Virus record (IMG/VR): IMGVR_UViG_3300031552_000003
Coordinates: 1 to 64,000 of that record
Length of the DNA stretch: 64,000 nucleotides
Source: a virus
Strand: one strand, 5' to 3'
The notes beneath the pieces are model-generated. The model was not told where the DNA came from. It saw nothing but the letters and a program-made list of their open reading frames with translations, and searched no databases. Numbering within the stretch: the stretch's first letter is position 1; each line of letters opens with the position of its first letter. Below, in pieces: positions 12,112 to 34,808 of the stretch. The position numbers and the translations under genes were made by a program.

Positions 12112-13530
12112 ATGAAACGCGCAATAAAATCAAAAGAAATAACATCAAATACGGATTTGCAAACATTAAGCACGTTAGTATCACGCATGGCTTTGGCGAG
12201 TTCTCTTGGGCAGCAAACATACGGAGGGGATCGTGATATATATCAGGCTCTCGGATATCCTGTGGATATAAAATATAAAGATTATGTTGCACGTTATTTT
12301 AGACAAGATATTGCAAAAGCAATTATAGACCGTCCAGTAAAAGCGACTTGGCAAGGAAAATTAGAATTGGTAGAATCTGAAAAGGAAGAAACCCCATTTG
12401 AAAAAGCTTGGATTGATTTAAATGATAAATTTGGGTTACAATCAATATTTTCCAGGGTAGATCGTTTAACTGGTATTGGAAAATATGGTATTATTTTATT
12501 GGGTTTAGATGATGTTCAAAAAAATGATGATTTTCAAAAACCGTCTATAGGAAAAAGAAAATTAATTTATTTGATGCCTTTTGGAGAAGGGTCTGCTGTT
12601 ATAAATACATATGAAACAGATGCAAGAAACCCGAGATATGGAAAACCTTTAACTTATTCTATTACTGTACAACAAATGGAAGGTGGTGTAAGTACAGTTA
12701 TTGAAGTACATTACAGCAGAATAGTACACATTATAGATAATCCATTAGAATCTGATATAGAAAGTACCCCTGTTTTAGAAGTTGTCTTTAATCGGTTAAT
12801 TGATTTGGAAAAACTTGTAGGAGGGGATGCGGAAATGTTTTGGAGAGGGGCACGGCCAGGTTATGCGGGTTCTGTTGATAAAGATTTTCAAATGACCCCT
12901 AAAACAAAAGCTGATTTAAAAGAACAAATTGATGAGTATGAGCATAATTTACGGAGGATATTGGTTAATGAAGGCGTGGATTTAAAAGCATTAGCACAGC
13001 AAATTGCAGATCCTATAAACCATGTTGATGTGCAAATACAAATGATATCAGCAGTTACAGGTATTCCAAAAAGAATATTAGTAGGAAGTGAACGTGGAGA
13101 ATTATCAAGTGCGCAAGATACATCAGAATGGAAAACATATGTACGCATACGTAGGCAGGAACATGCGGAACCTCATATTATTCGCCCTTTTGTAACTCGC
13201 TGTATGGAGCTTGGGGTTCTTCCAAGATTAACAACAAGTAGATATTCTGCGACTTGGGAAGATTTATTTGCTTTGAGTGAAGGCGATAGGGTTAAAATTG
13301 GAAAAGAAAGAGCATCAGCTTTGAAAGACTATACTTCAAGCCCAATGTCGGAAGCAGTATTATCTCCGGAAGCATTTGTAGAATTTTGTATGGGGTTTAC
13401 CTCAGATCAAATTAACAAGTTAAAACAAATGATGGGAGGGCCTGAATCTTTAGAACAAAAAAGTATGCAAAAATTTAAGGAAATTACAGAGAAACAAGCT
13501 CCTTTAGAAAAAAAAAGATACCAAAGATAG
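12112..13530 (+). CDS. Portal protein (DUF1073-like)
   Basis: IAKAIIDRPV..TW, PRYGKP..Y, IHYSR-like VHYSR, TGIPKRILVGSERG; precedes Mu F-like gene. Confidence 0.85.
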   Translation: MKRAIKSKEITSNTDLQTLSTLVSRMALASSLGQQTYGGDRDIYQALGYPVDIKYKDYVARYFRQDIAKAIIDRPVKATWQGKLELVESEKEETPFEKAWIDLNDKFGLQSIFSRVDRLTGIGKYGIILLGLDDVQKNDDFQKPSIGKRKLIYLMPFGEGSAVINTYETDARNPRYGKPLTYSITVQQMEGGVSTVIEVHYSRIVHIIDNPLESDIESTPVLEVVFNRLIDLEKLVGGDAEMFWRGARPGYAGSVDKDFQMTPKTKADLKEQIDEYEHNLRRILVNEGVDLKALAQQIADPINHVDVQIQMISAVTGIPKRILVGSERGELSSAQDTSEWKTYVRIRRQEHAEPHIIRPFVTRCMELGVLPRLTTSRYSATWEDLFALSEGDRVKIGKERASALKDYTSSPMSEAVLSPEAFVEFCMGFTSDQINKLKQMMGGPESLEQKSMQKFKEITEKQAPLEKKRYQR

Positions 13531-16138: not shown

Positions 16139-16654
16139 ATGAAATACAACACAATTAAATTAAAGAATTATTTACATATTCGTGAAGAATATACTGCGGC
16201 AGAAGCTATCCTTCCGGGGATGTTGGTTGAATTAAACAGTTCCGGGACACTTCAAAAACATTCAGGGGCAGGACAAACAGCTCTTCCTATGTTTGCGATA
16301 GAAGATGCTTTACAAGGTAAAGCGATTGATGAAGCTTATGCAGCTTCAGATAAAGTACAAGTATGGGTCCCTACAAGGGGGGATATTGTATATGGTTTGC
16401 TTGCAGATGAGGAAACTGTTGTTATTGGTGATTTTGTTGAAAGTAATGGGGCTGGGTTTCTTCGTAAATTAGTCCGTACAAATGAGAGTTGGGAATCTGA
16501 TGATGATGCCCCGGGTGGAGGGGATCATACTATTTATGATATGCACATTGTAGGACAAGTGCTTGAAGCTAAAGATTTATCTTCTCTTGAAGGTTCTGAA
16601 TCCAGTGCAGCTACGGCCACAACTACGCAGTACACTCAAATTAGAATAATGTAA
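16139..16654 (+). CDS. Head decoration/cement protein
   Basis: A.EAI.PG.LV, GD.V.S.G.G motifs; between scaffold and capsid genes. Confidence 0.7.
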   Translation: MKYNTIKLKNYLHIREEYTAAEAILPGMLVELNSSGTLQKHSGAGQTALPMFAIEDALQGKAIDEAYAASDKVQVWVPTRGDIVYGLLADEETVVIGDFVESNGAGFLRKLVRTNESWESDDDAPGGGDHTIYDMHIVGQVLEAKDLSSLEGSESSAATATTTQYTQIRIM

Positions 16655-16673
16655 TTAAAGAAAGGAGAAGAAA

Positions 16674-17777
16674 ATGAAAAACAACGTAAATGTTGATTTA
16701 TTAGGTAATGGAGGCGGGAATGGACAGGTTGCCAAGATGTTATTGTCTAATGGCAAGCTTAATCCCGGGACAATGCGGCCTTTTATTGGAAATGATGGTA
16801 ATTCGTATATAACTTATTATAAGGGGGGTAATCCAAATAAACCGGCGAATTATGTCACACAGCGTATTAATTCAAATGCCACACTTCGTCGTGACGAATG
16901 GAAAGCGTTAGATGAATCTTTGCTTGAAGTAGCTCGTCAACGTCTTGGAGGGGTTCAGGATTTGATTGATAGCGGGCTTACCTATAATTTAGGTAATGCA
17001 ATGGGTACTACAGTACTTGAATATCATGATGTAAGCGATGCAATGGAAGCTGACCTTACTATGGATGGTATTACCCGTGGTAAAAATGATCGTCCTGATT
17101 TTAATTATCATTATTTACCTATTCCCATAATTCATGTTGATTATGAAATCAATGCTCGTGAATTAGCGGCAAGTAGAAATCTTGGTAATCCTTTGGACAC
17201 AATTGATGCTCAAACTGCTGCAAGAAAAGTAGCTGAAAAGTTAGAAGCGATGTTGTTTACCAATACTGATTATTCATTTGGTGAAAAAGGATCGAATGGA
17301 CGAAATACTATCTATAGTTATATCAACCATCCTGACAGGAATTTGGTTACATTGGATATACATTGGGACGATTCTCCGATTACCGGGGCATTGATTGTAC
17401 AGGATGTTCTTGCATTAAAACAGGCATCTATTGCTGATTATCATTATGGCCCGTGGAAATTATACATCCCGACCAATTATGAAACAGTGCTTGATGGTGA
17501 TTATGATTCTACTACACCTGGTACAACTATTCGTGAACGTATTATGAAAATTGCTGGTATTACCGGTATTAAAGTAGTAGATACTTTACCTGCGGACAAT
17601 GTGCTTTTGGTACAAATGACGAGTGATGTTGTTCGTTTAGTCCGTGGCATGGGTATTCAGAATGTGGAATGGAAGTCAGAAGGCAATATGGTGACAAATT
17701 ACAAAGTCATGACAATTCAGGTTCCGCAGATTCGCAGTGATTATAATAAACGGTCAGGAATTATCCATTTGGCTTAA
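16674..17777 (+). CDS. Major capsid protein (HK97 fold, Linocin_M18/encapsulin-like)
   Basis: TLRRDEW..LD, LPIPIIH.DY.I..REL, YGPW.LY; size, position and strong SD. Confidence 0.88.
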   Translation: MKNNVNVDLLGNGGGNGQVAKMLLSNGKLNPGTMRPFIGNDGNSYITYYKGGNPNKPANYVTQRINSNATLRRDEWKALDESLLEVARQRLGGVQDLIDSGLTYNLGNAMGTTVLEYHDVSDAMEADLTMDGITRGKNDRPDFNYHYLPIPIIHVDYEINARELAASRNLGNPLDTIDAQTAARKVAEKLEAMLFTNTDYSFGEKGSNGRNTIYSYINHPDRNLVTLDIHWDDSPITGALIVQDVLALKQASIADYHYGPWKLYIPTNYETVLDGDYDSTTPGTTIRERIMKIAGITGIKVVDTLPADNVLLVQMTSDVVRLVRGMGIQNVEWKSEGNMVTNYKVMTIQVPQIRSDYNKRSGIIHLA

Positions 17778-18197: not shown

Positions 18198-18920
18198 ATG
18201 TGGCATGTTCCTGAAATATGGAAGAATGGAGAGTGTTGGATATTAGGGGGAGGGCCCTCGTTAGTAGAACAATTTAATATTCCTAAAAATATTGTTCAAA
18301 GTGTTATCGAAGGAAAAACTACCCCTAATGCTTATTCTCCGTACATGGAAGCTATACATGATAAGCATGTGATAGGGGTTAACATGTCTTATAAAATAGG
18401 AAATTGGATTGATTTTGTTTTTTTTGGGGATAGTGGGTTTTTTGTTAGAGAGAAAAACAACATATCAATTTTCCCAGGAATAAAAGTATCATGTCATCCA
18501 CAAGTTGAAAAATGTCCTTGGGTGAAATATGTTGGAAGGGATACAAAGCACCCAAAAGGAATCAGTTCAAATCCTAAAATGGTTTCATGGAATGCAAATA
18601 GTGGTGCAGCATCAATAAGTTTAGCTGCACACCTTGGGGTAAAGAGAATTATTTTAGTAGGATTTGATATGAAATTAGATGATAGTGGTAAACAACATTG
18701 GCATGATTTGTATGGTAAGTTAAAAAACTTAAATATTAATGCTGGAAAAGAAAAAAGAAGGGGGCCAGGAGGATTGCCTTTTAACAGGCATTTATTAGGA
18801 TTTTCTCAAATTGCAAAAGATGCTAATAATATGGGAATTGAAATTTTAAATGCATCTATTAATAGTGCTATACAAGAATTTAAAAAAGTAAATGTAAAAG
18901 ATTTAATTACTGTTAAATAA
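18198..18920 (+). CDS. Maf/MptE-like (DUF115-type) putative glycosyltransferase
   Basis: ILGGGPSL, VIGVN, NSG..SISLA.HLG.KRIILVGFD, ILNAS. Confidence 0.7.
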   Translation: MWHVPEIWKNGECWILGGGPSLVEQFNIPKNIVQSVIEGKTTPNAYSPYMEAIHDKHVIGVNMSYKIGNWIDFVFFGDSGFFVREKNNISIFPGIKVSCHPQVEKCPWVKYVGRDTKHPKGISSNPKMVSWNANSGAASISLAAHLGVKRIILVGFDMKLDDSGKQHWHDLYGKLKNLNINAGKEKRRGPGGLPFNRHLLGFSQIAKDANNMGIEILNASINSAIQEFKKVNVKDLITVK

Positions 18921-18932
18921 TTATAATCAATA

Positions 18933-19712
18933 ATGAATACAGTAAGGATTTGTGGAGGAGTTGGAAATCAATTGTTCCAGTATGCTTTTGGAAAATTTCA
19001 GGAATTTTTAGGAATATCGGTAGATTATGATATTTCGTGGTATAATAAACCACAAGTTCCACCAAGGTTATTTAGGTTATGTAAATATAAGATTGATTTA
19101 GATAAAAAATTAATTACATCTAAAGTATATAAAAGAACAATATTAGAAAAAGGGTTTAATTCTAAATCTATTATTGATATTGGGTATAAGTATAGTGGAT
19201 ATTGGCAATCTTCTTTTTATCATACAAATATTTTTCCAGTATTAAAGAAAGAATATCAGGTTAAGGAAAATTTTTATACTAAGGAATTTTTAGATTTAAA
19301 AAGAAAAATCACACAAAGTAATTCAGTTTCTTTGCATGTAAGAAGAGGGGATTATCTTGGAAAAAACAACCAATATGTTTTGCCATTAGAATACTATATT
19401 AATGCATTAAAGATATTATCTTTATTAAAAGGAAATTATGTTGTTTTTGTATTTAGTGATGATATTGCTTGGTGTAAGGAATATTTTCCTAATTTTTATT
19501 TTGTACAATTAGATGATTATCTTGAATTAGAATTGATGAGTTGTTGCAAACATAATATTATTGCAAATAGTACATTTAGTTGGTGGGCAGCATATTTAAA
19601 TAATAATTCAAATAAAATTGTAATAGCTCCTAAAAAATGGGTAGCAAGGAAAAAAGATCAAGATTTGATAGATAGAAAAAGGCTTATTTTGCATGATTGG
19701 ATAAAATTATAG
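18933..19712 (+). CDS. GT11 alpha-1,2-fucosyl/colitosyl-transferase
   Basis: GGVGNQLFQY, GYWQS, HVRRGDY, FSDD..WC, NSTFSWWAAY. Confidence 0.93.
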   Translation: MNTVRICGGVGNQLFQYAFGKFQEFLGISVDYDISWYNKPQVPPRLFRLCKYKIDLDKKLITSKVYKRTILEKGFNSKSIIDIGYKYSGYWQSSFYHTNIFPVLKKEYQVKENFYTKEFLDLKRKITQSNSVSLHVRRGDYLGKNNQYVLPLEYYINALKILSLLKGNYVVFVFSDDIAWCKEYFPNFYFVQLDDYLELELMSCCKHNIIANSTFSWWAAYLNNNSNKIVIAPKKWVARKKDQDLIDRKRLILHDWIKL

Positions 19713-19715
19713 TTT

Positions 19716-20462
19716 ATGTATGATATTTTAGTCCCCGCGCATGAAAAAGATTTTACAAAATTAAGTTTTGTATATGATTCTATTATAAAAAATATTGAAG
19801 GATTTAAGGATATTTACCATATAACAAATACAAAAGTTCCAAAATATTTAAGAATTTCAGGAATTAATTATTTTTTAGATGATGAAGTTATTGATTTTGA
19901 TTTTAGTTTGTTTAGAAATACGATAAAGAAAAGAACAGGATGGTATCGTCAACAGTTTGTTAAATTATTTCAAAATGTAACTGGGGATGAGTATTTGGTC
20001 ACAGAAGCTGATAACATATATAATAGGAAGATAAATATTATTGAAAACAATAAACCTGTTTTTTTCTTAGGAAAAGACCAAAATCATGCTCCATATTATA
20101 AGATAATGCAAAAGTTATTAGGCTATGGCAGGGAGTATAATTTTTCGTTTATCAATGAGATTATGTATATAAAACGGGAGTATGTAAAAGAACTTGTTGC
20201 TTTAACTAAATTAAATAAATATGGGTTTTTTGAGTTATTTGCAAATGAATTAAATCGCACACAAGAAACCAGTGGTTGTTCTGATTATGATTTATATGGA
20301 AATTTTATTGCTAAATATCATGAAGATGAATATTTATATAAACATGTTAAAACTGTTGTAACAGCTAAACATTCGGAATGGTCAGAAAGTGATATTAAAA
20401 AACAAATTGATTTATATAAGAATACAGATAATATAATGATAAAATTGCATACATGGATTTAG
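19716..20462 (+). CDS. GT-A-like protein (DUF6492-like)
   Basis: GWYRQQFVKL, EAD (DxD-like), SDYDLYG. Confidence 0.6.
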   Translation: MYDILVPAHEKDFTKLSFVYDSIIKNIEGFKDIYHITNTKVPKYLRISGINYFLDDEVIDFDFSLFRNTIKKRTGWYRQQFVKLFQNVTGDEYLVTEADNIYNRKINIIENNKPVFFLGKDQNHAPYYKIMQKLLGYGREYNFSFINEIMYIKREYVKELVALTKLNKYGFFELFANELNRTQETSGCSDYDLYGNFIAKYHEDEYLYKHVKTVVTAKHSEWSESDIKKQIDLYKNTDNIMIKLHTWI

Positions 20463-21331
20463 TGATGTTTCATAGTGGAGAAAAGTTTCCTAATTATCTT
20501 GGAGATACTTTTAAACAAATACGCATGTTTAACCCTGAATTAAACATTCATTTTTTAGTAGATTCTAAATTTTTGCAAAATAAAGTTTTTATTGATTATA
20601 ATATAATTGTAGTTAATAAAGATTTATATTATACAGATAAGATACATGAGTTAAATCTATTATATAAAAGAAAAGCAAATGATTTTTGGACAATTACAAC
20701 TACACGTTTGGTTTATATTGAAAATTATATTGAAAAAAAGGATTTAACAAATGTATATCATTTTGAAAATGATGTATTATTATATCGTTCTTTAAAAGAT
20801 TTTCATACTTTGTTTACTGTAAAATATCCATATTTAGCTATTACAGCAGGAAGTAAATATAAATATATGACAGGATTTATGTTTATTAAGAATTATATTG
20901 CTATTTCTTTAATGACAAGATTTTTTATAGATTTATTAAGTACATATGGTAAAGAGAAAATTATTCGCAAATATAATTTAGGAATGATTCATGAAATGGG
21001 ATTGATGGGGATTTATGGAATTGAAAGAGGTTATATATTCATTACAAAACTGCCTACACTACCAAACTCACCAAATTTTGAAGATTTTAATTCTATTTTT
21101 GACCCGGCAGCGTGGGGACAATTTGTAGGGGGTACACAAAATGAAGGCCCGGGGGCAAAACCTACAGATCATGATATTAGTCAAGTTTTAATAAAACATC
21201 CTGAATATAATGTGATTTGGGTTAAAGATATTGAAGGTAGAAAAATTCCTTTTTTTAAAATGGGTGATGAGCATATTCGAATTAATAATTTACATATACA
21301 TTCAAAAAATTTACATTTATATTTAAGCTAA
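20453..21331 (+). CDS. Putative glycosyltransferase-like protein
   Basis: FW..TT.R, HFENDVLLY, FDPAAWGQ, NLHIHSK. Confidence 0.55.
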   Translation: MDLVMFHSGEKFPNYLGDTFKQIRMFNPELNIHFLVDSKFLQNKVFIDYNIIVVNKDLYYTDKIHELNLLYKRKANDFWTITTTRLVYIENYIEKKDLTNVYHFENDVLLYRSLKDFHTLFTVKYPYLAITAGSKYKYMTGFMFIKNYIAISLMTRFFIDLLSTYGKEKIIRKYNLGMIHEMGLMGIYGIERGYIFITKLPTLPNSPNFEDFNSIFDPAAWGQFVGGTQNEGPGAKPTDHDISQVLIKHPEYNVIWVKDIEGRKIPFFKMGDEHIRINNLHIHSKNLHLYLS

Positions 21332-22062
21332 TGTTTGATTTTATTCAAGGGGAGAAGTTTGAAAGTTTAGCAGATGGAAAAAACATTTTCTATTGTCATA
21401 CGCATGATATTAAAGAATTTTTAAAAAAACATACAAATACTCCACCTTATATTTTAATTACGCATAATAGTGATAATTGCATTGATTTTAATGCCCCGGA
21501 CAATGTTATTAAATGGTATGCACAAAATGTAAATATAATTGACCCTAAAATAGAATCTTTACCTATTGGTCTTGAAAATGCTAAATGGTTGAAGCGTATT
21601 CCTAAGATTAAAAAAATGGAAGAGAAACTTTTACAACCAAGAAAATATAGGAATCTTTTATATGTAAATCATACAATAGCACATAATCCGGAACATAGAT
21701 ATAAACCATATCAAATATTTAAGAATAAAACATGGGTTACGATGCAATATGGGCATAATGGAAAAGATTTTGATACATATCTTGATAATTTGTATAATCA
21801 TAATTTTACTATTTCTCCACAGGGAAATGGGATAGATTGTCCGCGAACCTGGGAATGTTTGTATATGGGGACGGTCCCAATTGAAAAAAGAAATATAAAT
21901 AATCAATTTTATACAGACTTACCAATATGTTTTGTAGATGATTGGGAGGAAGTAACTGAGGATTTTTTAGTATCAGAATACATAAGAATAAAAACTGGTA
22001 AATGGAATATGGATAAATTGAATTTTGAATATTGGAAAAACAAAATATTTAACTACGTATGA
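21331..22062 (+). CDS. Exostosin-family (GT47-like) glycosyltransferase
   Basis: THNSD, LPIG, SPQGNGIDC.RTWECLY.G.VPI. Confidence 0.75.
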   Translation: MFDFIQGEKFESLADGKNIFYCHTHDIKEFLKKHTNTPPYILITHNSDNCIDFNAPDNVIKWYAQNVNIIDPKIESLPIGLENAKWLKRIPKIKKMEEKLLQPRKYRNLLYVNHTIAHNPEHRYKPYQIFKNKTWVTMQYGHNGKDFDTYLDNLYNHNFTISPQGNGIDCPRTWECLYMGTVPIEKRNINNQFYTDLPICFVDDWEEVTEDFLVSEYIRIKTGKWNMDKLNFEYWKNKIFNYV

Positions 22063-23126
22063 AAATAATTGTTATTGGTGCAGGAATATTTGGGATTACA
22101 ATAGCTTTGGAATTATCTAAAAAGTATAAGGATATTACTTTAGTGGATATGAATAATGATATTATGCAAAATGCATCAAAAGTAAATCATAATAGATTGC
22201 ATTTCGGTTTCCATTATCCCAGAAGTAAAACAACTGCTGTGCAAAGTTTGGACGGGTATAAATTATTTCATGATTGTTTTAGTAATGCTATAACTTCTGA
22301 TTTTGAAAATTATTATATGATTGAAAAAAATAGTTATGTTAATAGTGAAAATTATGAACATTTTTGTGATGATTTACATTTGATATATAAAAAACAATCT
22401 CCTAAGTTAGATATAAATTTTGATAGGGTTGAATCTTCTTATTTAACAAATGAACCTATTTTTGATTATGATTTAATAAAGTTGAAATTAGATAAAGATT
22501 TGAAATGTTCAGGAATTAAACTTCTTTTGAATAAGAGAATAACAAATAAAAAAGATTTAGAAGGATATGATGTAGTTATTAATACTACTTATTTTAATAT
22601 TAATAAAATAAAAGGTATTTTAGATTTACCACAAACTAAATTAAAATTACAAACAGTAATCATTCCAATTTTTAAGTATAAAGCACATAAGGTGGGATTA
22701 ACTATAATGGATGGAAAGTTTTGTAGTATTATGCCAAAAGGGTTTAATGATAACACATTTTTATTATACCATGTTAAAGAATCAGTTGTATATCAAACAG
22801 AAAATATGGAGATTCCGAAAATATGGTATTATGGAAAAGAAATTATAAAAAATAATTTTTTGAAAAAGCATGTGTATGATAATGTTATAGTTAAACATCA
22901 AGTTAATAAAATAGTGAAGGAATCTCAAAAATATTTTAGATTTATTGAAAATTGTGATTTTGTGGATTATTGGCAAACTGTAAGGGCTTTACCAATTAAT
23001 GATGATGATGAGAGATTAAGTATATTTGATATATTAGAACAAAATAATCAGAAAATTGTATCTGTATTGTCTGGCAAAATATCAACTTGTTTATTAATTG
23101 CAAATAATATATCTAAATTGATATGA
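22059..23126 (+). CDS. FAD-dependent oxidoreductase
   Basis: IIVIGAGIFG, AS..NHNRLH.GFHYPRS, SGKI. Confidence 0.85.
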   Translation: MKIIVIGAGIFGITIALELSKKYKDITLVDMNNDIMQNASKVNHNRLHFGFHYPRSKTTAVQSLDGYKLFHDCFSNAITSDFENYYMIEKNSYVNSENYEHFCDDLHLIYKKQSPKLDINFDRVESSYLTNEPIFDYDLIKLKLDKDLKCSGIKLLLNKRITNKKDLEGYDVVINTTYFNINKIKGILDLPQTKLKLQTVIIPIFKYKAHKVGLTIMDGKFCSIMPKGFNDNTFLLYHVKESVVYQTENMEIPKIWYYGKEIIKNNFLKKHVYDNVIVKHQVNKIVKESQKYFRFIENCDFVDYWQTVRALPINDDDERLSIFDILEQNNQKIVSVLSGKISTCLLIANNISKLI

Positions 23127-23872
23127 TGAATAGTATTTTATTTGGTAATGGGTATTGGGCTAATATAGTTAAAGAGAAGATTGTTAGTTTGACGAATTTA
23201 GTATTAATTGTGGATTCAAAAACTGATATTAGTATTTGGAATAAGATTAATGTGGATATAGCTTTTGTTTGTTCATCAACTTCAAGTCATTATGATATAG
23301 TTAAAAAATGTTTGGATAACAATATTAAATATATCTTTTGTACAAAACCATTTACAGGGGATTATAAGAAAGCTAAAGAATTATTTAGTATAGCAAATCG
23401 AAAAGGAATTTTTATTTTTATTGATAATCTATTTTTATATAGAAAAGAAATTATTGATATTAAATTAAAAAATATACAAAATTTTGTTTTTCATTGGGAG
23501 AAACCACATAAAATAAACATGGAAAGCATATATGATAGTTTACTTTATCATGATTTATATTTATTGTTAAAATGGAGTAAGTCTAAAAAATGGAAGGTTA
23601 TTTTTGTTGATAGATATGATGATTCATTATATCTATACATGATTAATGAATATTATCAAACTTGTTATTTTGAGTATAATATAAGTGGAAGAAAAAATAA
23701 ATGGATCATATTTGGTGATTTTGTTGTAAATTTAACAACAACAAAACAAGATTCATTAAAAGAGTGTATTATTGATATGTTGCAAGGTGATATAGATTTT
23801 GATTCAAATAAAAAGGTAACATTAGATACTTTGAAATTGTTAAATTTTATTCAAAAAAACCATGATAAATGA
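23123..23872 (+). CDS. Gfo/Idh/MocA-like NAD(P) oxidoreductase
   Basis: FGNGYW, SH......L....IFCTKP, LLYHD. Confidence 0.72.
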   Translation: MMNSILFGNGYWANIVKEKIVSLTNLVLIVDSKTDISIWNKINVDIAFVCSSTSSHYDIVKKCLDNNIKYIFCTKPFTGDYKKAKELFSIANRKGIFIFIDNLFLYRKEIIDIKLKNIQNFVFHWEKPHKINMESIYDSLLYHDLYLLLKWSKSKKWKVIFVDRYDDSLYLYMINEYYQTCYFEYNISGRKNKWIIFGDFVVNLTTTKQDSLKECIIDMLQGDIDFDSNKKVTLDTLKLLNFIQKNHDK

Positions 23873-24443
23873 TAAATATGTTGATTTATTAAAAGATGAG
23901 TATAAGCAATCGTATTTATTATATAAAAAAGGCTTATTAAAATTAGAAGCTTGGAGTTCTCATCAACCTTTGTTAATCCATGTTTTAAATACAATTAAAA
24001 GTGGGGATGTTTTAGAATTTGGTACAGGATATAATAGCACTCCAATAATGCATATCATTTGTGCATTTCAACAACGAAAATTGTTATCAATTGAAACAAA
24101 TAAAAAATGGGTAGAAAAATCATTGAAATGGAGAAATATTAATCATGTAATTGAATTAGTTTCTTCTAAAGAAATATTAAAACATTCTCTTTTTAGACAT
24201 AAATTTTCAATAGCTTTTATTGATGGTGCCCCGGCGGAGGTTCGTCAACCTTTTTTAGAAAAAGTACAAGCAGATTATCTTATTGTACATGATACAGAAT
24301 GTGTAGTAAGAGGAATTAAAAATGTATATGGTTATGATTTTTCTATGTTTAAACATGTTTATCATTTTAAAAAAGATTCTACTATGACTACATTATTAAG
24401 TAATTTGGATAAAATTGATAAAGATTTATTAACTATATTTTAA
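23862..24443 (+). CDS. Class I SAM-dependent methyltransferase-like
   Basis: VLEFGTGYNST, SIE...W, AFIDG, IVHDTE. Confidence 0.75.
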   Translation: MINDKYVDLLKDEYKQSYLLYKKGLLKLEAWSSHQPLLIHVLNTIKSGDVLEFGTGYNSTPIMHIICAFQQRKLLSIETNKKWVEKSLKWRNINHVIELVSSKEILKHSLFRHKFSIAFIDGAPAEVRQPFLEKVQADYLIVHDTECVVRGIKNVYGYDFSMFKHVYHFKKDSTMTTLLSNLDKIDKDLLTIF

Positions 24444-24448
24444 AAAGT

Positions 24449-25624
24449 ATGATTCCATTGATGCGAAATACATTTTTAAATGAATGTGATACTAAACAAG
24501 CTCTTGCAAAATTTATTATAGGAGCGGAAGTATTAAGCATGAATATTCAATGCAAGTCTTTTGAAATAGCTTTTGCTCAAAAGCAAAACAGGGATGAAGC
24601 CATTCTTTTTAATAGTGGAGGGAGTGCTAATTTAGCTTTGTTGCAATCTTTAAAGAATTTAGGTCGAATTAAAGAAGGGGATAAAATAGGGTTTTCTGCA
24701 TTGACTTGGGCGACAAATGTGATGCCTATCATACAAATGGGATTTGTTCCGGTGGCAATAGATTGTGAGGTGAATACATTAAATATAAGTCCAGAACAAT
24801 TATTATCTGTTATAAAAAATATAGATTTAAAAGTATTATTTCTTACAAATGTATTAGGGTTTATAGATAATATTAATGGTATTAAAAATATTTGTGATGA
24901 GTGGGGGATTATTTTACTTGAAGATAATTGTGAAGCATTAGGGACTGAGACTATATATGGAAAAACAGGTAATTTTGGAATTGCCTCTACTTTTTCTTTC
25001 TTTGTAGCTCACCATATGTCAACTATTGAAGGGGGGATGGTTTGTACTGACAATGAAGAGTTAACCGAAATGTTAAAAATAGTACGTGCGAATGGGTGGG
25101 ATAGAAATCTTTCAATTAAGCAACAAAGAAAATGGAGAGAAAAGTTTGATATAAAATCTGAATTTGATGCAAAATATACTTTTTATGATTTAGGATATAA
25201 TTTAAGGCCTACTGAAATAACAGGTTTTTTAGGTTGTTTACAATTGGAATGTTTGAATGATAGTATTAGTAAGCGAGAAATGAATTATTTATTAATTGAA
25301 GATACAATAAAGGAAAATAATGATTTTATAAATATTAAGCATGATCATATTGTTCAATTATCACCATTTGCAATTCCAATAATTTGTAAAACCCCTGAAT
25401 TAAAAAAGAAATATTTATCCAAATGTTTTGATTCGGGAATTGAAACCAGGCCAATGATTGCTGGAAACATGCAAAATCAACCATTCTATAAAAAATATGT
25501 AAAACAAACGTATAATTTACCAAACAGTGATTTTTTACATAATAATAGTTTTTATTGTGGAAACTATCCTGAGATGACAAAAGAAGATTTAAAAATAATA
25601 AAAGATGTTTTAATCAAAAACTAA
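24449..25624 (+). CDS. colD: PLP-dependent DegT-family enzyme, ColD-type (GDP-4-keto-6-deoxymannose 3-dehydratase-like)
   Basis: NSGGSANL, EDNCEALG, SFFVAHHMSTIEGG with His in place of the Schiff-base Lys; RANGWDR; GYNLRP. Confidence 0.75.
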   Translation: MIPLMRNTFLNECDTKQALAKFIIGAEVLSMNIQCKSFEIAFAQKQNRDEAILFNSGGSANLALLQSLKNLGRIKEGDKIGFSALTWATNVMPIIQMGFVPVAIDCEVNTLNISPEQLLSVIKNIDLKVLFLTNVLGFIDNINGIKNICDEWGIILLEDNCEALGTETIYGKTGNFGIASTFSFFVAHHMSTIEGGMVCTDNEELTEMLKIVRANGWDRNLSIKQQRKWREKFDIKSEFDAKYTFYDLGYNLRPTEITGFLGCLQLECLNDSISKREMNYLLIEDTIKENNDFINIKHDHIVQLSPFAIPIICKTPELKKKYLSKCFDSGIETRPMIAGNMQNQPFYKKYVKQTYNLPNSDFLHNNSFYCGNYPEMTKEDLKIIKDVLIKN

Positions 25625-25628
25625 GAGT

Positions 25629-26567
25629 ATGAATATTGATAGTAAAATATTAGTAACAGGTTGTCAGGGAATGACTGGTTGGGCAGTTATAAGAGAATTG
25701 AATAGGCAGGGATATGTAAATATTTATTGTGTTGACAGAGTTGATTGTGATTTATTAGATCAAAAGAGAGTATTAACTCTTTTTGAAAAAATAAGACCAG
25801 AATATGTTTTTCATATAGCAGGAAAAGTAGGAAGTATTTATGCAAATGATACTCAAAGTGGGGATTTTATTTATGAAAATCTTGTAATGCAATGTAATGT
25901 TATTGAATCTGCAAAATTATACAATGTAACGAAACTTTTATTTTGTGGTTCCGCTTGTGTTTATCCAAATTCTGATTCTCAACCTATTAAAGAAGAAGAT
26001 TTATTAACCGGGCCACTTGAAAAAACAAATATAGGTTATGCTATTGCTAAAATAGCAGGTGTCATAATGTGTCAAATGTATAATAAGCAACATAGATGTA
26101 ATTTTATTTCTGCTATACCTGCAAATATTTATGGGATAGGAGATAACTTTAATTTAACTTCGGCGCATGTGGTACCTGGTTTAATTAATAAATTTCATGA
26201 AGCAAAGACAAGTAAAATTTCAAGTGTGGAAGTTTGGGGGACGGGGGAAGCTTGTAGAGAATTTATTTATGTGGATGACCTTGCGAAAGGTTTAGTTCAT
26301 ATAATGAATAATTATGATAATTCAGAAGTTATTAATATAGGCACGGGTATTAGTATTCAGATTAAAGATATTGTTAGAATTATAAAAGATGTTGTAGGAT
26401 ACACAGGTGAAATAATTTATAATAATAATTTTGAAGGTGTCCGGGATCGTTGTTTAGATATAACTAAAATAAAAAGTCTTGGATGGGAAGCTAAGACTGA
26501 TTTTAGAGAAGGTATAAAAAATGTTTATGATTGGTATGTTAATAATTATACTTTTTTAAGAAAATGA
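25629..26567 (+). CDS. fcl: GDP-L-fucose synthase family epimerase/reductase (Fcl/ColC)
   Basis: TG..GM.G, GSACVYP, YAIAK, NIYG..DNF, HVVPGL, VWGTG...REF. Confidence 0.9.
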   Translation: MNIDSKILVTGCQGMTGWAVIRELNRQGYVNIYCVDRVDCDLLDQKRVLTLFEKIRPEYVFHIAGKVGSIYANDTQSGDFIYENLVMQCNVIESAKLYNVTKLLFCGSACVYPNSDSQPIKEEDLLTGPLEKTNIGYAIAKIAGVIMCQMYNKQHRCNFISAIPANIYGIGDNFNLTSAHVVPGLINKFHEAKTSKISSVEVWGTGEACREFIYVDDLAKGLVHIMNNYDNSEVINIGTGISIQIKDIVRIIKDVVGYTGEIIYNNNFEGVRDRCLDITKIKSLGWEAKTDFREGIKNVYDWYVNNYTFLRK

Positions 26568-27241
26568 GCACAATAAAAACTATAGTATTAGTATTAAGAA
26601 GTGGAAAGGATTTTTCCATGAGTGATGTAGAATTGATTAATAGACATATTAATATTAAATGGCAATCAGAAGAAAAATTTCGTGTAATTTGTTTATGGGA
26701 TAAGGCTACCCAACATTATAAATTAGGCAATTTGGAATTGATTCCATTGAAAAATAATTACCCGGGCACGTGGTCTCGTATGCAATTATATAGTCCTGAA
26801 ATGGAACAATATCGTCCTTTTTTATATATAGACTTGGATACAGCAATTATTACTTCTATTAAAAATATTTTTGATTTGGTAAAAGATGAATCAAAATTTA
26901 TTACACTTGAAGATTTTTGGCAAAAGAGACAATTAGCTACAGGCTTAGTTTGGTTTCCAAATAATTCACAAAAAATAAAACATGTGTGGGATATATGGAT
27001 AAAAGAACACCAAACAAGAGGGTCAAGAATGGATATGTTTTTACGTAAACATATTGAAGCAGATATTTTTTGGCAGCAATTAACAGATTTAATTGTTGAT
27101 TTTAAACCAAAAAACAGACAACTTGTAACTAAATTGCCAAAAGATGTTAATTTGGTATGTTTTCATGGTAAACCACGGGTACATCAAGCTATAAATATTG
27201 CATGGGTAAATGATTATGTAAATTATGAATTATGCGTGTAA
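26564..27241 (+). CDS. GT-A (GT8-like) glycosyltransferase
   Basis: LVLRSG, G.WS...L, LYIDLD, VCFHGKPR. Confidence 0.7.
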   Translation: MSTIKTIVLVLRSGKDFSMSDVELINRHINIKWQSEEKFRVICLWDKATQHYKLGNLELIPLKNNYPGTWSRMQLYSPEMEQYRPFLYIDLDTAIITSIKNIFDLVKDESKFITLEDFWQKRQLATGLVWFPNNSQKIKHVWDIWIKEHQTRGSRMDMFLRKHIEADIFWQQLTDLIVDFKPKNRQLVTKLPKDVNLVCFHGKPRVHQAINIAWVNDYVNYELCV

Positions 27242-27846
27242 GTATTATAATCCCATATAAAGAAGATAGAGGATGGTTAAAAAAAGCTGTTAAGAGTGTC
27301 CCAAAGAAGAATGTGCAGCTTATCCTTAGTCAGGGAGAAGGAAATTGGCCTCAAAATTTTAATAAAGCATTATCACAAGCTGATGGTGATTTAATAAAAT
27401 TTTTGCATGAAGATGATATGCTTACACCAAATGCAATTGAAAGTTATATTAAGGCATTTAGAAGCCCGTCATTTAAAGATATTCATTTTGCACATGGGAA
27501 TGCTTGGGAAATATTTATGTGCTCAACACGCCCTCCTAAATTGTATATACCAAGAATTGTATTGCCCACATTTGAAAATTTATTAATGCGAAATACTATA
27601 CATAGTGCTTCTTTGATTTACAGAAGGGAAGTATTTGAAAAAATTGGGAATTTAAATGAATCAGAAAATGTATATTCTTTTGAAGAGTATGAATTTAATT
27701 TACGTTGTTTAAAAGGAAATTTGAATATTGGTTATATTAACATACCTTTGGCATATTATCGCCGTCATCCTAAACAAATTATAAGAACTTGTAATATTTC
27801 TGAAAGAAAGCAAAACAGGGCTGAACTTTTAAAAAAATACATATGA
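27232..27846 (+). CDS. GT2 glycosyltransferase
   Basis: VSIIIP, FLHEDD, YRREVFEKIG, LAYYRRH. Confidence 0.88.
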   Translation: MRVSIIIPYKEDRGWLKKAVKSVPKKNVQLILSQGEGNWPQNFNKALSQADGDLIKFLHEDDMLTPNAIESYIKAFRSPSFKDIHFAHGNAWEIFMCSTRPPKLYIPRIVLPTFENLLMRNTIHSASLIYRREVFEKIGNLNESENVYSFEEYEFNLRCLKGNLNIGYINIPLAYYRRHPKQIIRTCNISERKQNRAELLKKYI

Positions 27847-28541
27847 TTAAAGATAATTCAAATATTCCAATTTTTATTACAGGGGCACAGCGTTCTGGAA
27901 CAACAATCATTGCAAAGATTATAGGCATGTGCGATGTTTTTACAGGGGATATATCAGAGATGATGGAAAATGGTTCTATTAAAGAATTAAATACAATATA
28001 TATTGGTGGAGTTTTAGGAATTGATGAAAGGGGGCAATTTCCGTTACCAGATACAAAAGAATTATTAATTCCAATGAATTGGAAAAAATGTGTCCATGAT
28101 ATTTTAGTTGAAGAAGGATATGATAAAAATAAGATATGGATGTTTAAAAGCCATGCTATTTGTCAATTATGGCCTATATGGAATCATGCATATCCAAATG
28201 CTAAATGGATTATAGTACGCAGGCGTACTGGTGATATTATTTATTCATGTATGAAAACAGCATATATGAATGCTTTTAAAGATAAGGTAATTCAAAAAGC
28301 AGTAGGTGCAAATAATGAACAGGAAGGTTGGCTTTGGTGGGTACGGCAACATGAAAAATTATTTGTTGAAATGATTGAAGCTGGGTTAAATTGTAAAGTT
28401 ATTTGGCCTGAGCGTATGGTAAATGGTGATTATTCCCAGATATATGAGATGCTTGAATGGTTAGGTTTGAAATGGGATGATTCAATTGTAAAAACTATTG
28501 ATCCGCTTTTATGGAACAGCAGACAAAAGGAAAGGAAATAA
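27843..28541 (+). CDS. Sulfotransferase family protein
   Basis: IFITGAQRSGTT (5'-PSB loop), PNAKWIIVRR...DI..S. Confidence 0.8.
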   Translation: MIKDNSNIPIFITGAQRSGTTIIAKIIGMCDVFTGDISEMMENGSIKELNTIYIGGVLGIDERGQFPLPDTKELLIPMNWKKCVHDILVEEGYDKNKIWMFKSHAICQLWPIWNHAYPNAKWIIVRRRTGDIIYSCMKTAYMNAFKDKVIQKAVGANNEQEGWLWWVRQHEKLFVEMIEAGLNCKVIWPERMVNGDYSQIYEMLEWLGLKWDDSIVKTIDPLLWNSRQKERK

Positions 28542-28544
28542 GAT

Positions 28545-28925
28545 ATGGCAGTAAGGGTGACAGCTGATGAGGTAAAAGAAATAATGGATGGTGTTACATC
28601 ATCTGATCCTACTATAGAAATATTTATTACAGCAGCAAGTGCTGTAATAGATAATGTATTTACAGGGGATACTGTAATAGGGACAACTTTATTAAAGGAG
28701 CTTGAAAGATGGCTTACGGCACACATGTTAGCTTCTACTCTTTTTAGAATGTCTGTACAAGAAAAACTTGGCGAAGCTGAAGTAAAATATATGGGAAAAT
28801 GGGGAGAAAACCTCGCGTCTACACCATATGGTCAAATGTTAAAAGTGCTTGATACAACCGGTAAAATAAGCCAATTGGGGAAATCTTCTGCTACTATGTA
28901 TGCTATAACAAGTTTTGATGATTAA
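28545..28925 (+). CDS. Head-tail adaptor
   Basis: LERWLTAH, L.STPYGQ...LD..G; position. Confidence 0.7.
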   Translation: MAVRVTADEVKEIMDGVTSSDPTIEIFITAASAVIDNVFTGDTVIGTTLLKELERWLTAHMLASTLFRMSVQEKLGEAEVKYMGKWGENLASTPYGQMLKVLDTTGKISQLGKSSATMYAITSFDD

Positions 28926-31505: not shown

Positions 31506-31903
31506 GGTTTGCTCATCCAGATATACTTTTGGATGAGCTTACTTCTGTTCAAATAAGTGAATGGGAAGCCTATGATAAAATAGATCCTATTGGTACTTGG
31601 AGAGATGATTTTAGAATGGCTAATTTAGCTGCTATAATTACAAACATTGTAAATTGTTTATATTCAAAGAAAGGATCACAGCTAAAGTTAACCACTCCAT
31701 TAGATTTTATGCCTGATTGGAGTAATGACAAAAAAGAAGTTTCTATAAAACAAAGTCCGGAAGAAATGAAAGAATCTCTTTTAAGATTTGTAAAAATACA
31801 TAATAAAAAAATAGAAAGTCTAAAAACAAGCAGGGTTCCAAAACAAACAAGAAAAAAAAGAAACGATGAACATAGGAACAATGACAGCAACCCTGGGGGT
31901 TAA
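31454..31903 (+). CDS. Tail assembly chaperone extension (gpT-like, via frameshift)
   Basis: L.S.QI.EW.AY....P.G..RDD.R.A, DFMP. Confidence 0.8.
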   Translation, partial: LRSRPGRQFQFRLCRELGFAHPDILLDELTSVQISEWEAYDKIDPIGTWRDDFRMANLAAIITNIVNCLYSKKGSQLKLTTPLDFMPDWSNDKKEVSIKQSPEEMKESLLRFVKIHNKKIESLKTSRVPKQTRKKRNDEHRNNDSNPGG

Positions 31904-34808
31904 TACAGCAGGGTTGCAAATGGCAGAAGCAGCAATGCAACGTTTTCAACAAAAAGCGAATATTTCAATGGCAAATGTTACTAAAACTCTTGATAAAACA
32001 GGGCGGAATATGTATTATTTTGGAACTGCTGCCGGAAGATTTTTAACATTGCCATTAGCATTGGCCGGGGTTGCTGCTTTTAAAGCTGCAAAGGATTTTG
32101 AAAGTTCCATGCAAAAAATTGTTGGTTTAGTTGGTGTTGCACAAACACAGGTAAATGAATGGCGCCAGGAATTGTTAAAATTAGGGCCTGAAATAGGCAA
32201 AAGCCCTAAAGAATTGGCGGAAGCTTTGTATTTTATAACATCATCAGGGTTTAAAGGTGCAGAAGCAATGACGATATTGACTGAATCTGCAAAAGCTGCT
32301 GCTTCTGGTTTAGGTGAAGCAAAAGATATAGCTGATTTAGCTACCTCTGCGATGAGTGCTTACAAAAGTTCAGGGTTAACAGCAAGCCGTGTAATGGATG
32401 TATTAACTGCTGCTGTACGTGAAGGGAAAGGGGAAGCATCAGAGTATGCAAAACAAATGGGTGATGTTATTCCAATAGCATCTAAAATGGGGGTTAGTTT
32501 TGATCAAGTAGCATCAGCAATGTCTGCTGTTAGTTTAACAGGGACAGGGGTAGCTGAAGCTTCTACGCAGATAAAACGAATATTAATTTCATTACTAAAA
32601 GTAACACCACAAGCAGAGAAGGCTCTTAATGACATGGGGACTTCCGGACAGGAAATGCGGGATATATTTAGAAATCAAGGAATGCTTGAAGGATTGATAA
32701 AGTTAAACAAATTGTTTAATAAATTTGGGGAGGATATGGTAGGGAAAGTATTTCCAAATGTTCGGGCATTACTTCCTGTTTTATCATTAACAGGTGATCG
32801 TTTAAATGATAATATAAAATTGTTTAAAGCTGTGGATGAATCTTTAGGAAGTGCAAAAACAGCATATGAAGTTACAGCTAATACTATTGAGCGAAAATAC
32901 AATAAAGCATTGGCTTCTGCTCAAAGTTCCATGATTACTTTTGGAATGGCGTTGAAAGGTCCGATTGCTTCTTTTCTTGAAGGGTTTTCAAATAAAATAC
33001 AAAGTTTAACAAATTGGTTTAGCAATCTTACTAAATATCAGCAAGAATGGGTATTTCAAATAGGAGTTACTGTTGCAGCAATAAGTCCTTTAACTATTGC
33101 ATTAGGATTAATGATGAGGGGGCTTAGTGGGATAGCTGCTATTGTGACTTGGTTAAGTGCTAATCCTATTGTAATAGCAGGGGCAATAGCTGCTACGGCT
33201 ATAGCTATGGCAGCTCATTTAATAATAATAACTAATACAAATAAGGAATTACAAACATATTCTGAAAAATTAGAAGATTTAGGTGGAAGTACAAAATCTT
33301 TTACAGATATGTTAAACAAGGAAACAGCACAAATTTCATTATTGTTTTCTACATTAAAAGTAAGTAACAATAGTTTAAATGTGCGAAAAGCATATGTTGA
33401 TGAAATAAATAAAAAATATAAAGATTATTTACCTAATTTACTTTCTGAAAAAACAACATTAAATGAAATAAATGAAATTGAAGCTAAATTGATAGATAAT
33501 ATAAGAGCAAGAATGGCTGCACAATTTGAAAGTAAAAAGATAACTGCCATTTTAGATCAGCAAATAGAAAGAGAAAGTGAAATGCTAAATTACTTATCTT
33601 CTGCAAAAGTTCCGTTAGCAGTTTGGGTAGCTGCTTTTGAAGAAGCTTATTCTAATGTAACTAAATTTGGGAGGGCATATGCTGAATTTTTTGACCCTGA
33701 AGGAAATAAAATAGGAGAATATACAAAAGATATTGATGCTTTGGCTAAAATACTGAATATAGAACCAAAGTTATTGACAGGTACTTATTTTGAAAATATG
33801 CGAGGAAAATTTACTCCAGTTTTTGATGATTTAATTGCATATAGATTACAAGATACTAAAGCAATAGAGCGCACAAAACAAGCAATGAAGGAATATATTT
33901 CTTTAATTGAAGAATCTGTAAAAACTTCTGAAAAAGGAAAAGGTGGAAAGGGTAAAAAAGAAATAGATTATTCAACCATGTTTGGAAATCCAAAAGAGGC
34001 TTTAGAATGGTATCAAAAGGAATTAGACAAAGCTAAATATTTTAAATTTGAAATGCCTGAATTTGAAGAAACTGATTATACAAATTTTTTTAAAAAAATA
34101 GGAGATTCTGCTACACCTTTAGAAAATTTAAACAATCAGCTTGCTCGCATTGCTTTGCATAATTCTTTAGTTGCAGATTCTTTTGATAGCACTTCTTTAG
34201 CTTCAAAAACATTAAGTGAACAAATTGCTTTTACACAACAATCATATGATGCATTATTTGAGTTATATCCAATGGGAAATGAGTTATTGCAAATACGTAT
34301 TGATAAATTAAAAGAATTAAAAGAAGTTCAAGAAAAATCAAATAGAGCAGCAGAAATAGGAAGTACAGTTGCAAGAGAATTTTCACAAGCATTGCAAGGA
34401 AATATTGAAGATGCACAAGATTTAGGTAATGCTTTGCGTAGAGCTGCTATAAATGCGATTGCAGCATATATAGCCGAAGCAGTAGTATATAATGCTAAAA
34501 ATGCGATAACAACTTCTAAAAATCCTTATACAGCATTGATTAAAGCTGCTGCTATTTCTGCGGCTACACGAGCATTATTAGAAGGGATTGTGCCTAAATT
34601 AGCAGAGGGTGGAGAAGTTCCTCCCGGATACCCAGCAGACACATATCCAGCATTGCTTACATCAGGGGAAATAGTAACACCCCCAGGTAAACTACCATCT
34701 ATAGAAAATCAAAGTTCTTCAATGAATGGTGAGGTTGTATTTCGTATTGATGGATATGAGTTAGTAGGGATTCTTAAAAAATATGATCAAAAATTAAGCA
34801 AAATATAA
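31866..34808 (+). CDS. Tape measure protein
   Basis: 980 aa helical, LTLPL..AG.AA.K...DFE..M; position after chaperones. Confidence 0.92.
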   Translation: MNIGTMTATLGVNTAGLQMAEAAMQRFQQKANISMANVTKTLDKTGRNMYYFGTAAGRFLTLPLALAGVAAFKAAKDFESSMQKIVGLVGVAQTQVNEWRQELLKLGPEIGKSPKELAEALYFITSSGFKGAEAMTILTESAKAAASGLGEAKDIADLATSAMSAYKSSGLTASRVMDVLTAAVREGKGEASEYAKQMGDVIPIASKMGVSFDQVASAMSAVSLTGTGVAEASTQIKRILISLLKVTPQAEKALNDMGTSGQEMRDIFRNQGMLEGLIKLNKLFNKFGEDMVGKVFPNVRALLPVLSLTGDRLNDNIKLFKAVDESLGSAKTAYEVTANTIERKYNKALASAQSSMITFGMALKGPIASFLEGFSNKIQSLTNWFSNLTKYQQEWVFQIGVTVAAISPLTIALGLMMRGLSGIAAIVTWLSANPIVIAGAIAATAIAMAAHLIIITNTNKELQTYSEKLEDLGGSTKSFTDMLNKETAQISLLFSTLKVSNNSLNVRKAYVDEINKKYKDYLPNLLSEKTTLNEINEIEAKLIDNIRARMAAQFESKKITAILDQQIERESEMLNYLSSAKVPLAVWVAAFEEAYSNVTKFGRAYAEFFDPEGNKIGEYTKDIDALAKILNIEPKLLTGTYFENMRGKFTPVFDDLIAYRLQDTKAIERTKQAMKEYISLIEESVKTSEKGKGGKGKKEIDYSTMFGNPKEALEWYQKELDKAKYFKFEMPEFEETDYTNFFKKIGDSATPLENLNNQLARIALHNSLVADSFDSTSLASKTLSEQIAFTQQSYDALFELYPMGNELLQIRIDKLKELKEVQEKSNRAAEIGSTVAREFSQALQGNIEDAQDLGNALRRAAINAIAAYIAEAVVYNAKNAITTSKNPYTALIKAAAISAATRALLEGIVPKLAEGGEVPPGYPADTYPALLTSGEIVTPPGKLPSIENQSSSMNGEVVFRIDGYELVGILKKYDQKLSKI

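Follow-up and report, generated by a model that had tools for sequence, protein, structure and literature searches.

The virus record IMGVR_UViG_3300031552_000003 of the IMG/VR database has a length of 75,421 bp and is rated 100% complete by CheckV; the stretch analyzed here, referred to as the window, comprises its positions 1 to 64,000. The plus strand of the window carries two adjacent genes, which are predicted to act on a nucleotide-activated deoxysugar. P0001 (24449–25624, 391 amino acids) is predicted to encode a ColD-type guanosine diphosphate (GDP)-4-keto-6-deoxy-D-mannose 3-dehydratase, which depends on pyridoxamine or pyridoxal 5'-phosphate (PMP/PLP), and P0002 (25629–26567, 312 amino acids) a GDP-4-keto-sugar epimerase/4-reductase of the Fcl family. 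A glycosyltransferase of family 11 (GT11; 259 amino acids), which belongs to the alpha-1,2-fucosyl/colitosyl-transferases and is a candidate for using GDP-L-colitose and/or GDP-L-fucose, is encoded upstream on the same strand (18933–19712). Colitose is known from the O-antigens of a few Gram-negative bacteria, in which it is a terminal sugar. The preliminary description of this DNA had regarded P0001 and P0002 as the colitose enzymes ColD and ColC. The analysis presented here supports the ColD assignment and places P0002 in a phage lineage of Fcl enzymes, and both would probably act together in a short branch leading to GDP-L-colitose.

The ColD-type dehydratase P0001

P0001 is a member of the DegT_DnrJ_EryC1 family (Pfam PF01041, E-value 1.3e-54). 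Its best relative among solved structures is ColD of Escherichia coli O55 (PDB 2gms, E-value 4e-55, residues 20–388 versus 21–389), followed by the dehydrase E1 (PDB 3bcx, 4.5e-43), and the only NCBIfam model in its vicinity is RfbH, which is matched with 226 bits, far below the cut-off of 423 bits. Since P0001 and E. coli ColD share only 31% identity, more than a motif is needed to establish family membership. ColD is separated from aminotransferases and from E1 and SpnQ by a histidine in place of the catalytic lysine and by the missing cysteine motif for an iron-sulfur cluster, and the role of this histidine has been described (review PMC8987622). Both features were followed in an alignment of P0001 with E. 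coli ColD, one genuine RfbH (encoded by Methanoregula, 744 bits), aminotransferases and 48 close homologs. The Schiff-base column is occupied by lysine in all 13 aminotransferase-type sequences and by histidine in ColD, RfbH and 48 of 48 close homologs. In P0001, this histidine is part of the sequence SFFVAHHMSTIEGG (residues 183–196) and is aligned with His188 of E. coli ColD, whose residue number is identical. The cysteine cluster of RfbH and E1 (CWCDPGCDNSC in the sequence L074 and DCYCAPGCDNTC in PDB 3bcx) is aligned with the cysteine-free stretch GWDRNLSIKQQRKWREKF of P0001, and no cysteine is found in this region in any of the 48 family members.

The histidine-type enzymes form one clade in a maximum-likelihood tree, with a Shimodaira-Hasegawa-like approximate likelihood ratio (SH-aLRT) support of 99. 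This clade is split into an RfbH branch and a ColD branch (SH-aLRT 96), to which the P0001 family belongs together with E. coli ColD and a viral lineage. The histidine and the missing E1 cysteine cluster, which the preliminary description had read from the sequence, are thus confirmed by the alignment, and its view of P0001 as a ColD-type 3-dehydratase rather than an aminotransferase or an RfbH/E1 enzyme is borne out by the structural match, the two diagnostic regions and the tree. The phylogenetic comparison it had proposed groups P0001 with ColD and apart from RfbH and the aminotransferases.

Thousands of P0001 homologs are present in Bacteroidota, Patescibacteria and many other phyla, the closest of which are 60 to 67% identical. 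Gene neighborhoods were counted at 44 bacterial or archaeal genome loci that encode a homolog with at least 50% identity to P0001. An Fcl-like gene adjoins the ColD homolog at about 26 of these 44 loci (a figure derived from 29 of 39 Fcl-like open reading frames, three of the 29 being viral) and is nearly always located immediately upstream, which is also the order of colC and colD in E. coli O55. A GT11 gene directly follows the ColD homolog at 13 of the 44 loci, and a Gmd with 54 to 69% identity to E. coli Gmd is encoded within 8 kb at 15 of them. Judged by these gene families, the neighborhood of P0001 homologs is that of a GDP-colitose gene set and not of a cytidine diphosphate (CDP) or deoxythymidine diphosphate (dTDP) set. 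Because of the phylogeny and this GDP-pathway context of the homologs, P0001 is accepted as ColD at the level of the family and, as far as can be predicted, of the probable reaction. Together with ColD of two related viral loci, L001 and L002, P0001 nests inside the bacterial family beside a Melioribacter sequence (97%), and two other viral members of its family, L003 and L004, branch elsewhere in the tree. The phage ColD gene is, on this phylogenetic evidence, acquired from bacteria.

The Fcl family protein P0002 and the GT11 transferase

P0002 starts 4 nucleotides beyond the stop codon of the ColD gene, and 4-nucleotide and overlapping gene junctions indicate operon coupling. The NCBIfam model for GDP-L-fucose synthase (NF047922) is matched with 369 bits, which is below the curated cut-off of 500 bits, and the structure of E. 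coli Fcl (PDB 1e6u) with an E-value of 3e-75. With 38% identity to E. coli Fcl and 35.5% to O55 ColC, P0002 is about equally distant from both. The residues S108, C110, Y137, K141 and H180 match S107, C109, Y136, K140 and H179 of E. coli Fcl, and the NADP-binding GxxGxxG motif is present; however, Fcl and both ColC clades share the Ser/Tyr/Lys triad and the Cys/His pair without exception, and these residues do not discriminate between them. Phylogenetic trees are more informative in this respect. The bacterial ColD-adjacent genes form one strongly supported clade (99), and E. coli ColC and two further ColD-adjacent genes form another (100). P0002 is found outside both, in a large group with E. 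coli Fcl, the additional Fcl copies found in Mucilaginibacter and Pedobacter, and the majority of the viral Fcl genes linked to gmd. Its closest relatives, with 99% support, are the Fcl proteins of L002, which has the same ColD, and of the viral loci L086 and L088, which are devoid of ColD. Forcing P0002 together with the ColC clades worsens the log-likelihood by 102.6 units and is rejected by the approximately unbiased (AU) test (p = 0.0002, for a group defined after the tree had been seen). By phylogeny, P0002 is a diverged member of the Fcl family, and, as these trees indicate, it is part of the own Fcl lineage of its gene island and not a ColC ortholog. Of the earlier claim that ColD is followed by ColC, the intact Fcl family neighbor at 25629–26567 therefore stands, whereas ColC orthology does not.

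Two further columns were considered as a marker for ColC. At the positions corresponding to P207 and T280 of Fcl, both ColC clades carry Ala/Ser and Met, respectively, as opposed to Pro and Thr in Fcl. P0002 has Ala and Val at these columns (encoded around 26240–26250 and 26450–26470 of the window), and the lone ColD-partner Fcl genes of the loci L021 and L147 show the ColC-like combination of Ala and Met. However, L086 and L088 lack Pro and Thr as well, and since ColD-less relatives also show the Ala/Val type, the two columns are suggestive and not diagnostic.

The GT11 protein matches Pfam PF01531 with an E-value of 2e-27 over profile positions 32 to 295 of 298 and carries the sequence HVRRGDY, whose HVRRGD part, starting at residue 135, meets the donor-binding motif HxRRxD. 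It shares 33.6% identity with WbgN of E. coli O55 (7e-32). In the corresponding tree, it is found in a clade with 99% support, which contains the GT11 proteins of the island relatives, including the ColD-less ones, and is separated from WbgN and from bacterial ColD-adjacent GT11 proteins. The gene has, by its position in this tree, been inherited within the island lineage. The preliminary description was right about the presence of a GT11 gene, and no special tie to the colitosyltransferase WbgN is seen in the tree. In published assays, WbgN as well as human FUT2 proved able to transfer L-fucose in addition to L-colitose (PMC11987014, PMC12723683). As these enzymes use both donors, the supply of the donor sets the product, and acceptance of GDP-fucose only, which had been named as an observation that would speak against the colitose idea, discriminates weakly. 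The GT11 protein is a reasonable candidate for transferring the sugar; its sequence says nothing on donor preference.

Genomic setting and a variable slot upstream of Fcl

The record carries a siphovirus-type structural module with genes for portal, head-morphogenesis, protease/scaffold, major capsid, neck, tape measure and tail fibre proteins (Pfam, PHROG), with capsid and decoration proteins encoded at 16139–17777, and the phage origin assumed for the DNA is borne out by the portal (12112–13530), the major capsid protein and the tape measure (31866–34808). The genes for ColD, Fcl and GT11 belong to a glycan island of 13 tightly packed plus-strand genes (18198–28541). It is bordered upstream by the plus-strand major capsid protein gene (16674–17777; Pfam DUF6260, Linocin_M18 and Major_capside, PHROG 771/264) and downstream by a gene for a DUF4054 head-tail adaptor-type protein on the same strand (28545–28925; Pfam PF13262; PHROG 302, virion structural protein). 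The glycan-related Pfam matches of the island comprise MptE-like, GT11, DUF6492, GT47-like, flavin adenine dinucleotide (FAD) oxidoreductase, Gfo/Idh/MocA, DegT, Fcl, GT2 and sulfotransferase families, and the sulfotransferase gene is located at 27843–28541. No membrane-spanning segments were predicted for the 13 island genes, the sole stretch of this kind being the N-terminus of a Rossmann fold, and none of these genes was recognized as encoding a flippase, a polymerase or an initiating phosphoglycosyltransferase. With its location among virion genes and its lack of genes for export, the island would fit a glycan target in the cytoplasm, possibly the virion. A promoter pattern of the Bacteroidota type (TTTG-N17-21-TAnnTTTG) shows no enrichment in the window, with 8 matches versus 5.8 expected and 22 of 100 shuffled sequences reaching 8.

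The same island is also present in L001, L002, L085, L086, L088, L089 and L110. Gene maps reveal a constant part consisting of Fcl, a homolog of the gene at 26564–27241 (fused to a longer reading frame in L086 and L089) and the sulfotransferase gene, and the stretch just upstream of Fcl is variable among the island phages. In the window, this slot was compared over 21331–25628 with L086:4788-5999, L089:1769-3070, L110:6939-8120 and L088:5127-5999. Upstream of ColD, it contains in this phage a trio of genes for an FAD oxidoreductase, a Gfo/Idh/MocA protein (23123–23872) and a weakly matching methyltransferase-like protein (together 22059–24443), which overlap one another and adjoin the ColD gene. 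In L001 and L002, the slot holds ColD and one gene of 298 amino acids without known function, which is unrelated to the trio. L086 encodes a nucleoside diphosphate (NDP)-hexose C-methyltransferase (PF08484) at this site and a Gmd downstream of Fcl; L089 a cysteine-rich E1-like dehydratase and Gmd; L110 an MptE-like gene directly upstream of Fcl, with a divergent histidine-type DegT gene and Gmd after Fcl; and L088 one gene without a family match and neither ColD nor Gmd. The recurrence of a gene for 298 amino acids upstream of ColD was considered as a sign of an alternative reductase; this was rejected, as the proteins, namely a GT2, an FkbM methyltransferase and a third without assignment, are unrelated and share only their approximate length.

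Since ColD is of bacterial descent and the trees of Fcl and GT11 agree with the phage island, the simplest interpretation is that ColD was gained alone and that a phage fucose module thereby acquired a bacterial ColD without ColC. A bacterial col cluster would have contributed ColD without its ColC, and the gene would have been inserted just upstream of the constant Fcl gene of the island. A more tentative idea goes further and regards the slot as a place where enzymes modifying the GDP-4-keto-6-deoxy intermediate may be swapped, so that the exchange of a single gene might diversify the terminal L-deoxysugar of one glycan, which may be virion-borne, with Fcl acting as promiscuous finisher.

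ColD-type genes in other viruses and in small genomes

Histidine-type ColD relatives are encoded on at least 585 IMG/VR contigs. In the best 80 viral ColD-type loci, neighbors within 5 kb were counted; Gmd is encoded there in 45 loci and a GT11 in 21. An Fcl-family gene is found nearby in only 20 of the 80, so other finishing enzymes must exist in viruses. A search starting from Fcl retrieved 80 viral loci, about 17 of which combine gmd and a single Fcl gene with a histidine-type, cysteine-less ColD. P0001 has matches in 70 GenBank records of phages, and 54 of these are Synechococcus phages. The Synechococcus phage ACG-2014f (L164, NC_047712.1, 156070–159983) encodes in a row a Gmd with 65% and an Fcl with 49% identity to the E. 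coli proteins, a histidine-type ColD-like protein (32%) and a GT11; the annotation of these genes reads nucleotide-sugar epimerase for the first two, aminotransferase for the third and glycosyltransferase for the last, and "aminotransferase" is currently the annotation of the ColD-type genes of cultured cyanophages.

Two viral contigs are noted here in addition. A 642-kb uncultured phage without annotation (L165, LR756502.1, 436611–438710) carries adjoining genes for an Fcl (47% identity to E. coli Fcl) and a ColD (58% to P0001), with a second DegT-like gene 6 kb away. In L004 (10001–14068), a ColD with 53% identity to P0001 is accompanied by an Fcl-like gene and a split transketolase (PF00456; PF02779 and PF02780), a gene set which may represent a route to a branched-chain dideoxy sugar.

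Among cellular organisms, three Patescibacteria genomes of 0.7 to 1.4 Mb (G003, G004 and G005, with the loci L018, L020, L021, L065, L066 and L068) encode ColD with an adjoining GT11 and only a single Fcl-family gene each. This lone gene is gmd-linked in L020 and L021, and the match in G005 contains a TGA codon. The single-Fcl sets of Patescibacteria and viruses would fit an Fcl-type enzyme that does the job of ColC.

Proposed route to GDP-L-colitose and alternative explanations

Given the observed family membership, catalytic residues, synteny and phylogeny, it is proposed that ColD diverts GDP-4-keto-6-deoxymannose of the host and that Fcl finishes the product to GDP-L-colitose, a two-enzyme branch on the host GDP-fucose route, which is considered the probable, though by no means certain, function of the pair. 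The GDP-sugar context of the phage consists of the adjoining Fcl and the island GT11, and gmd (TIGR01472) was found neither in the window nor anywhere else in the 75,421-bp record. The earlier statement that the window lacks gmd thus holds and extends to the full record, and because gmd is absent from the phage, the host intermediate would have to be used, a dependence the preliminary description had already proposed. In the first step, Gmd of the host, whose supply is assumed, would form GDP-4-keto-6-deoxy-D-mannose. P0001 would then remove the 3-hydroxyl group by means of PMP and His188 as catalytic base, yielding GDP-4-keto-3,6-dideoxy-D-mannose; it would do so without an iron-sulfur cluster or a reductase partner, and PMP would be regenerated from glutamate as in E. 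coli ColD. The reaction of ColC consists of C5 epimerization and C4 reduction. Carried out by P0002 on the 3-deoxy ketone, C5 epimerization and NADPH-dependent C4 reduction would yield GDP-L-colitose (3-deoxy-L-fucose), because C3 is no longer a stereocenter and Fcl chemistry on this ketone would therefore give colitose. GDP-L-fucose is probably made alongside: since ColD and Fcl draw on one and the same intermediate, the output is most likely a mixture of GDP-fucose and GDP-colitose, and the island GT11 would transfer whichever L-sugar is supplied to a putative acceptor. The diversion of the fucose intermediate to a 3,6-dideoxy sugar, as originally suggested, is hence supported for the ColD step by the family evidence and the lack of gmd, and it has to be revised for the finishing step, which would be carried out by an enzyme of the Fcl lineage instead of ColC. 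The fucose-mimicking glycan cap that the preliminary description envisaged would be a hypothetical end product of this route. The presence of other enzymes acting on a 4-keto sugar in the slot of the relatives, as predicted from their families, was counted in favor of the proposed route.

Several points weigh against this proposal. P0001 shows the low identity to E. coli ColD mentioned above, and the dehydratase tree comes from a quick search with E. coli ColD as a long branch and a single RfbH reference. In Campylobacter, enzymes closely related to E. coli ColD have GDP-heptose ketones as substrates (PMC10440746), so the family alone does not fix the substrate scope within the ColD fold. P0002 is placed outside both ColC clades, a literature search gave no report of an Fcl enzyme that accepts GDP-4-keto-3,6-dideoxymannose, and the supply of the Gmd product by the host is an assumption. 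Moreover, the three tailoring genes at 22059–24443 could change the final sugar.

The alternative that survives best is that the two genes do not form a pathway pair. P0002 would make only GDP-L-fucose, as is presumed for the Fcl of the ColD-less relatives, and the ColD product would be converted to a different 3,6-dideoxyhexose by another reductase, of the host or the Gfo/Idh/MocA protein of the trio, or would be a dead end. The orthology of P0002 to the Fcl proteins of the ColD-less L086 and L088, together with the rejected ColC placement, speaks for this explanation, as does the finding that Gmd is encoded near the viral ColD-type genes far more often than an Fcl-family protein. However, the ColD and Fcl genes are separated by only 4 nucleotides, L001 and L002 have retained the pair with 72% identity, single-Fcl and ColD sets recur independently in Patescibacteria and many viral contigs, and Fcl chemistry, according to the established mechanisms of ColC and Fcl, would lead from the 3-deoxy ketone to colitose directly. 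An unpaired Fcl is considered unlikely, with a small but real probability.

It is slightly less likely still that the final product is a modified colitose or another deoxysugar, which is made by means of the trio and the sulfotransferase and for which colitose would be an intermediate or one of several products. The overlap of the trio genes and their direct contact with ColD would fit such tailoring, and the content of the slot differs from relative to relative and includes enzymes for sugar tailoring, for example the C-methyltransferase of L086. L001 and L002, however, keep ColD and Fcl and have the unrelated gene in place of the trio, so the pair does not depend on the trio, and neither Pfam nor NCBIfam matched the trio to a characterized pathway. 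The idea that P0001 is not a GDP-6-deoxyhexose 3-dehydratase and acts instead on a CDP-, dTDP- or GDP-heptose ketone or as an aminotransferase, for which the distance to E. coli ColD, the GDP-heptose substrates of the Campylobacter relatives and the automatic naming of homologs as "CDP-6-deoxy-D-xylo-4-hexulose-3-dehydrase" by the Joint Genome Institute (JGI) can be cited, is very improbable in view of the low RfbH score, the missing E1/SpnQ cysteine motif, the histidine in the catalytic column and the GDP-pathway genes (Gmd, Fcl-like, GT11) next to the homologs.

Significance

The chemistry of colitose formation is textbook knowledge, and a literature search found no paper on colitose synthesis or a ColD gene set in a virus; the phage setting thus appears to be unpublished, yet it is common in sequence data. 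Its commonness, with hundreds of IMG/VR contigs and cultured cyanophages, weakens the case for a discovery. What is distinctive here is the bacterial-type ColD, the missing gmd and the location of the pair in a swap-prone slot of a capsid-adjacent island. If the proposed route is correct, phages would make 3,6-dideoxy sugars during infection, and a plain fucose synthase could replace a dedicated ColC, in which case the gmd-fcl-"aminotransferase" clusters of phages and small bacterial genomes would need another annotation. Furthermore, one acquired gene would turn a fucose-bearing glycan into a colitose-bearing one, given the donor promiscuity of GT11 enzymes.

Comparison with characterized systems

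The best reference is the GDP-L-colitose pathway of E. coli O55:H7, which consists of Gmd, ColD (WbdK; PDB 2gms, 2r0t, 3b8x and 3gr9), ColC (WbdJ) and the GT11 colitosyltransferase WbgN. The phage uses the same enzyme families for three of these four steps. P0001 shares with E. coli ColD the histidine at position 188, the lack of an iron-sulfur cluster and a length of about 390 amino acids, and in both systems, the dehydratase gene adjoins that of the epimerase/reductase and a GT11 gene is part of the same cluster. In contrast to E. coli O55, the phage has no gmd, its reductase belongs to the Fcl lineage and not to ColC, and the gene order is ColD-Fcl instead of colC-colD. The phage genes are also located in a virion-gene module and are not accompanied by wzx, wzy or a gene for an initiating transferase.

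E1/RfbH (CDP-6-deoxy-L-threo-D-glycero-4-hexulose 3-dehydrase; PDB 3bcx and 3bb8) and SpnQ share the DegT fold and the replacement of lysine by histidine with P0001. Like ColD, E1 and SpnQ catalyze the C3 deoxygenation of a 4-keto-6-deoxy sugar nucleotide (PMC8987622); however, they bind a [2Fe-2S] cluster through four cysteines and need a reductase partner, whereas P0001 lacks such cysteines and is about 45 amino acids shorter than E1/RfbH.

The bacterial ColD family of Pedobacter, Ferruginibacter, Mucilaginibacter and others (L009–L053) is 52 to 67% identical to P0001, and all members have His188 and none the cysteine motif. Their partner is usually a dedicated gene of the ColC clade immediately upstream, often together with gmd, whereas the phage took ColD alone. 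The Gmd-Fcl-ColD-type cassettes of other phages (IMG/VR, ACG-2014f) resemble the phage described here in that a histidine-type, cysteine-less 3-dehydratase is accompanied by only one Fcl-type enzyme and, in many cases, by a GT11. Their ColD proteins, however, form a separate viral lineage with the motif SFYFGHHMSTIEGG and 29 to 40% identity to P0001, and they usually come with their own Gmd, whereas this phage lacks Gmd and acquired its bacterial-type ColD recently.

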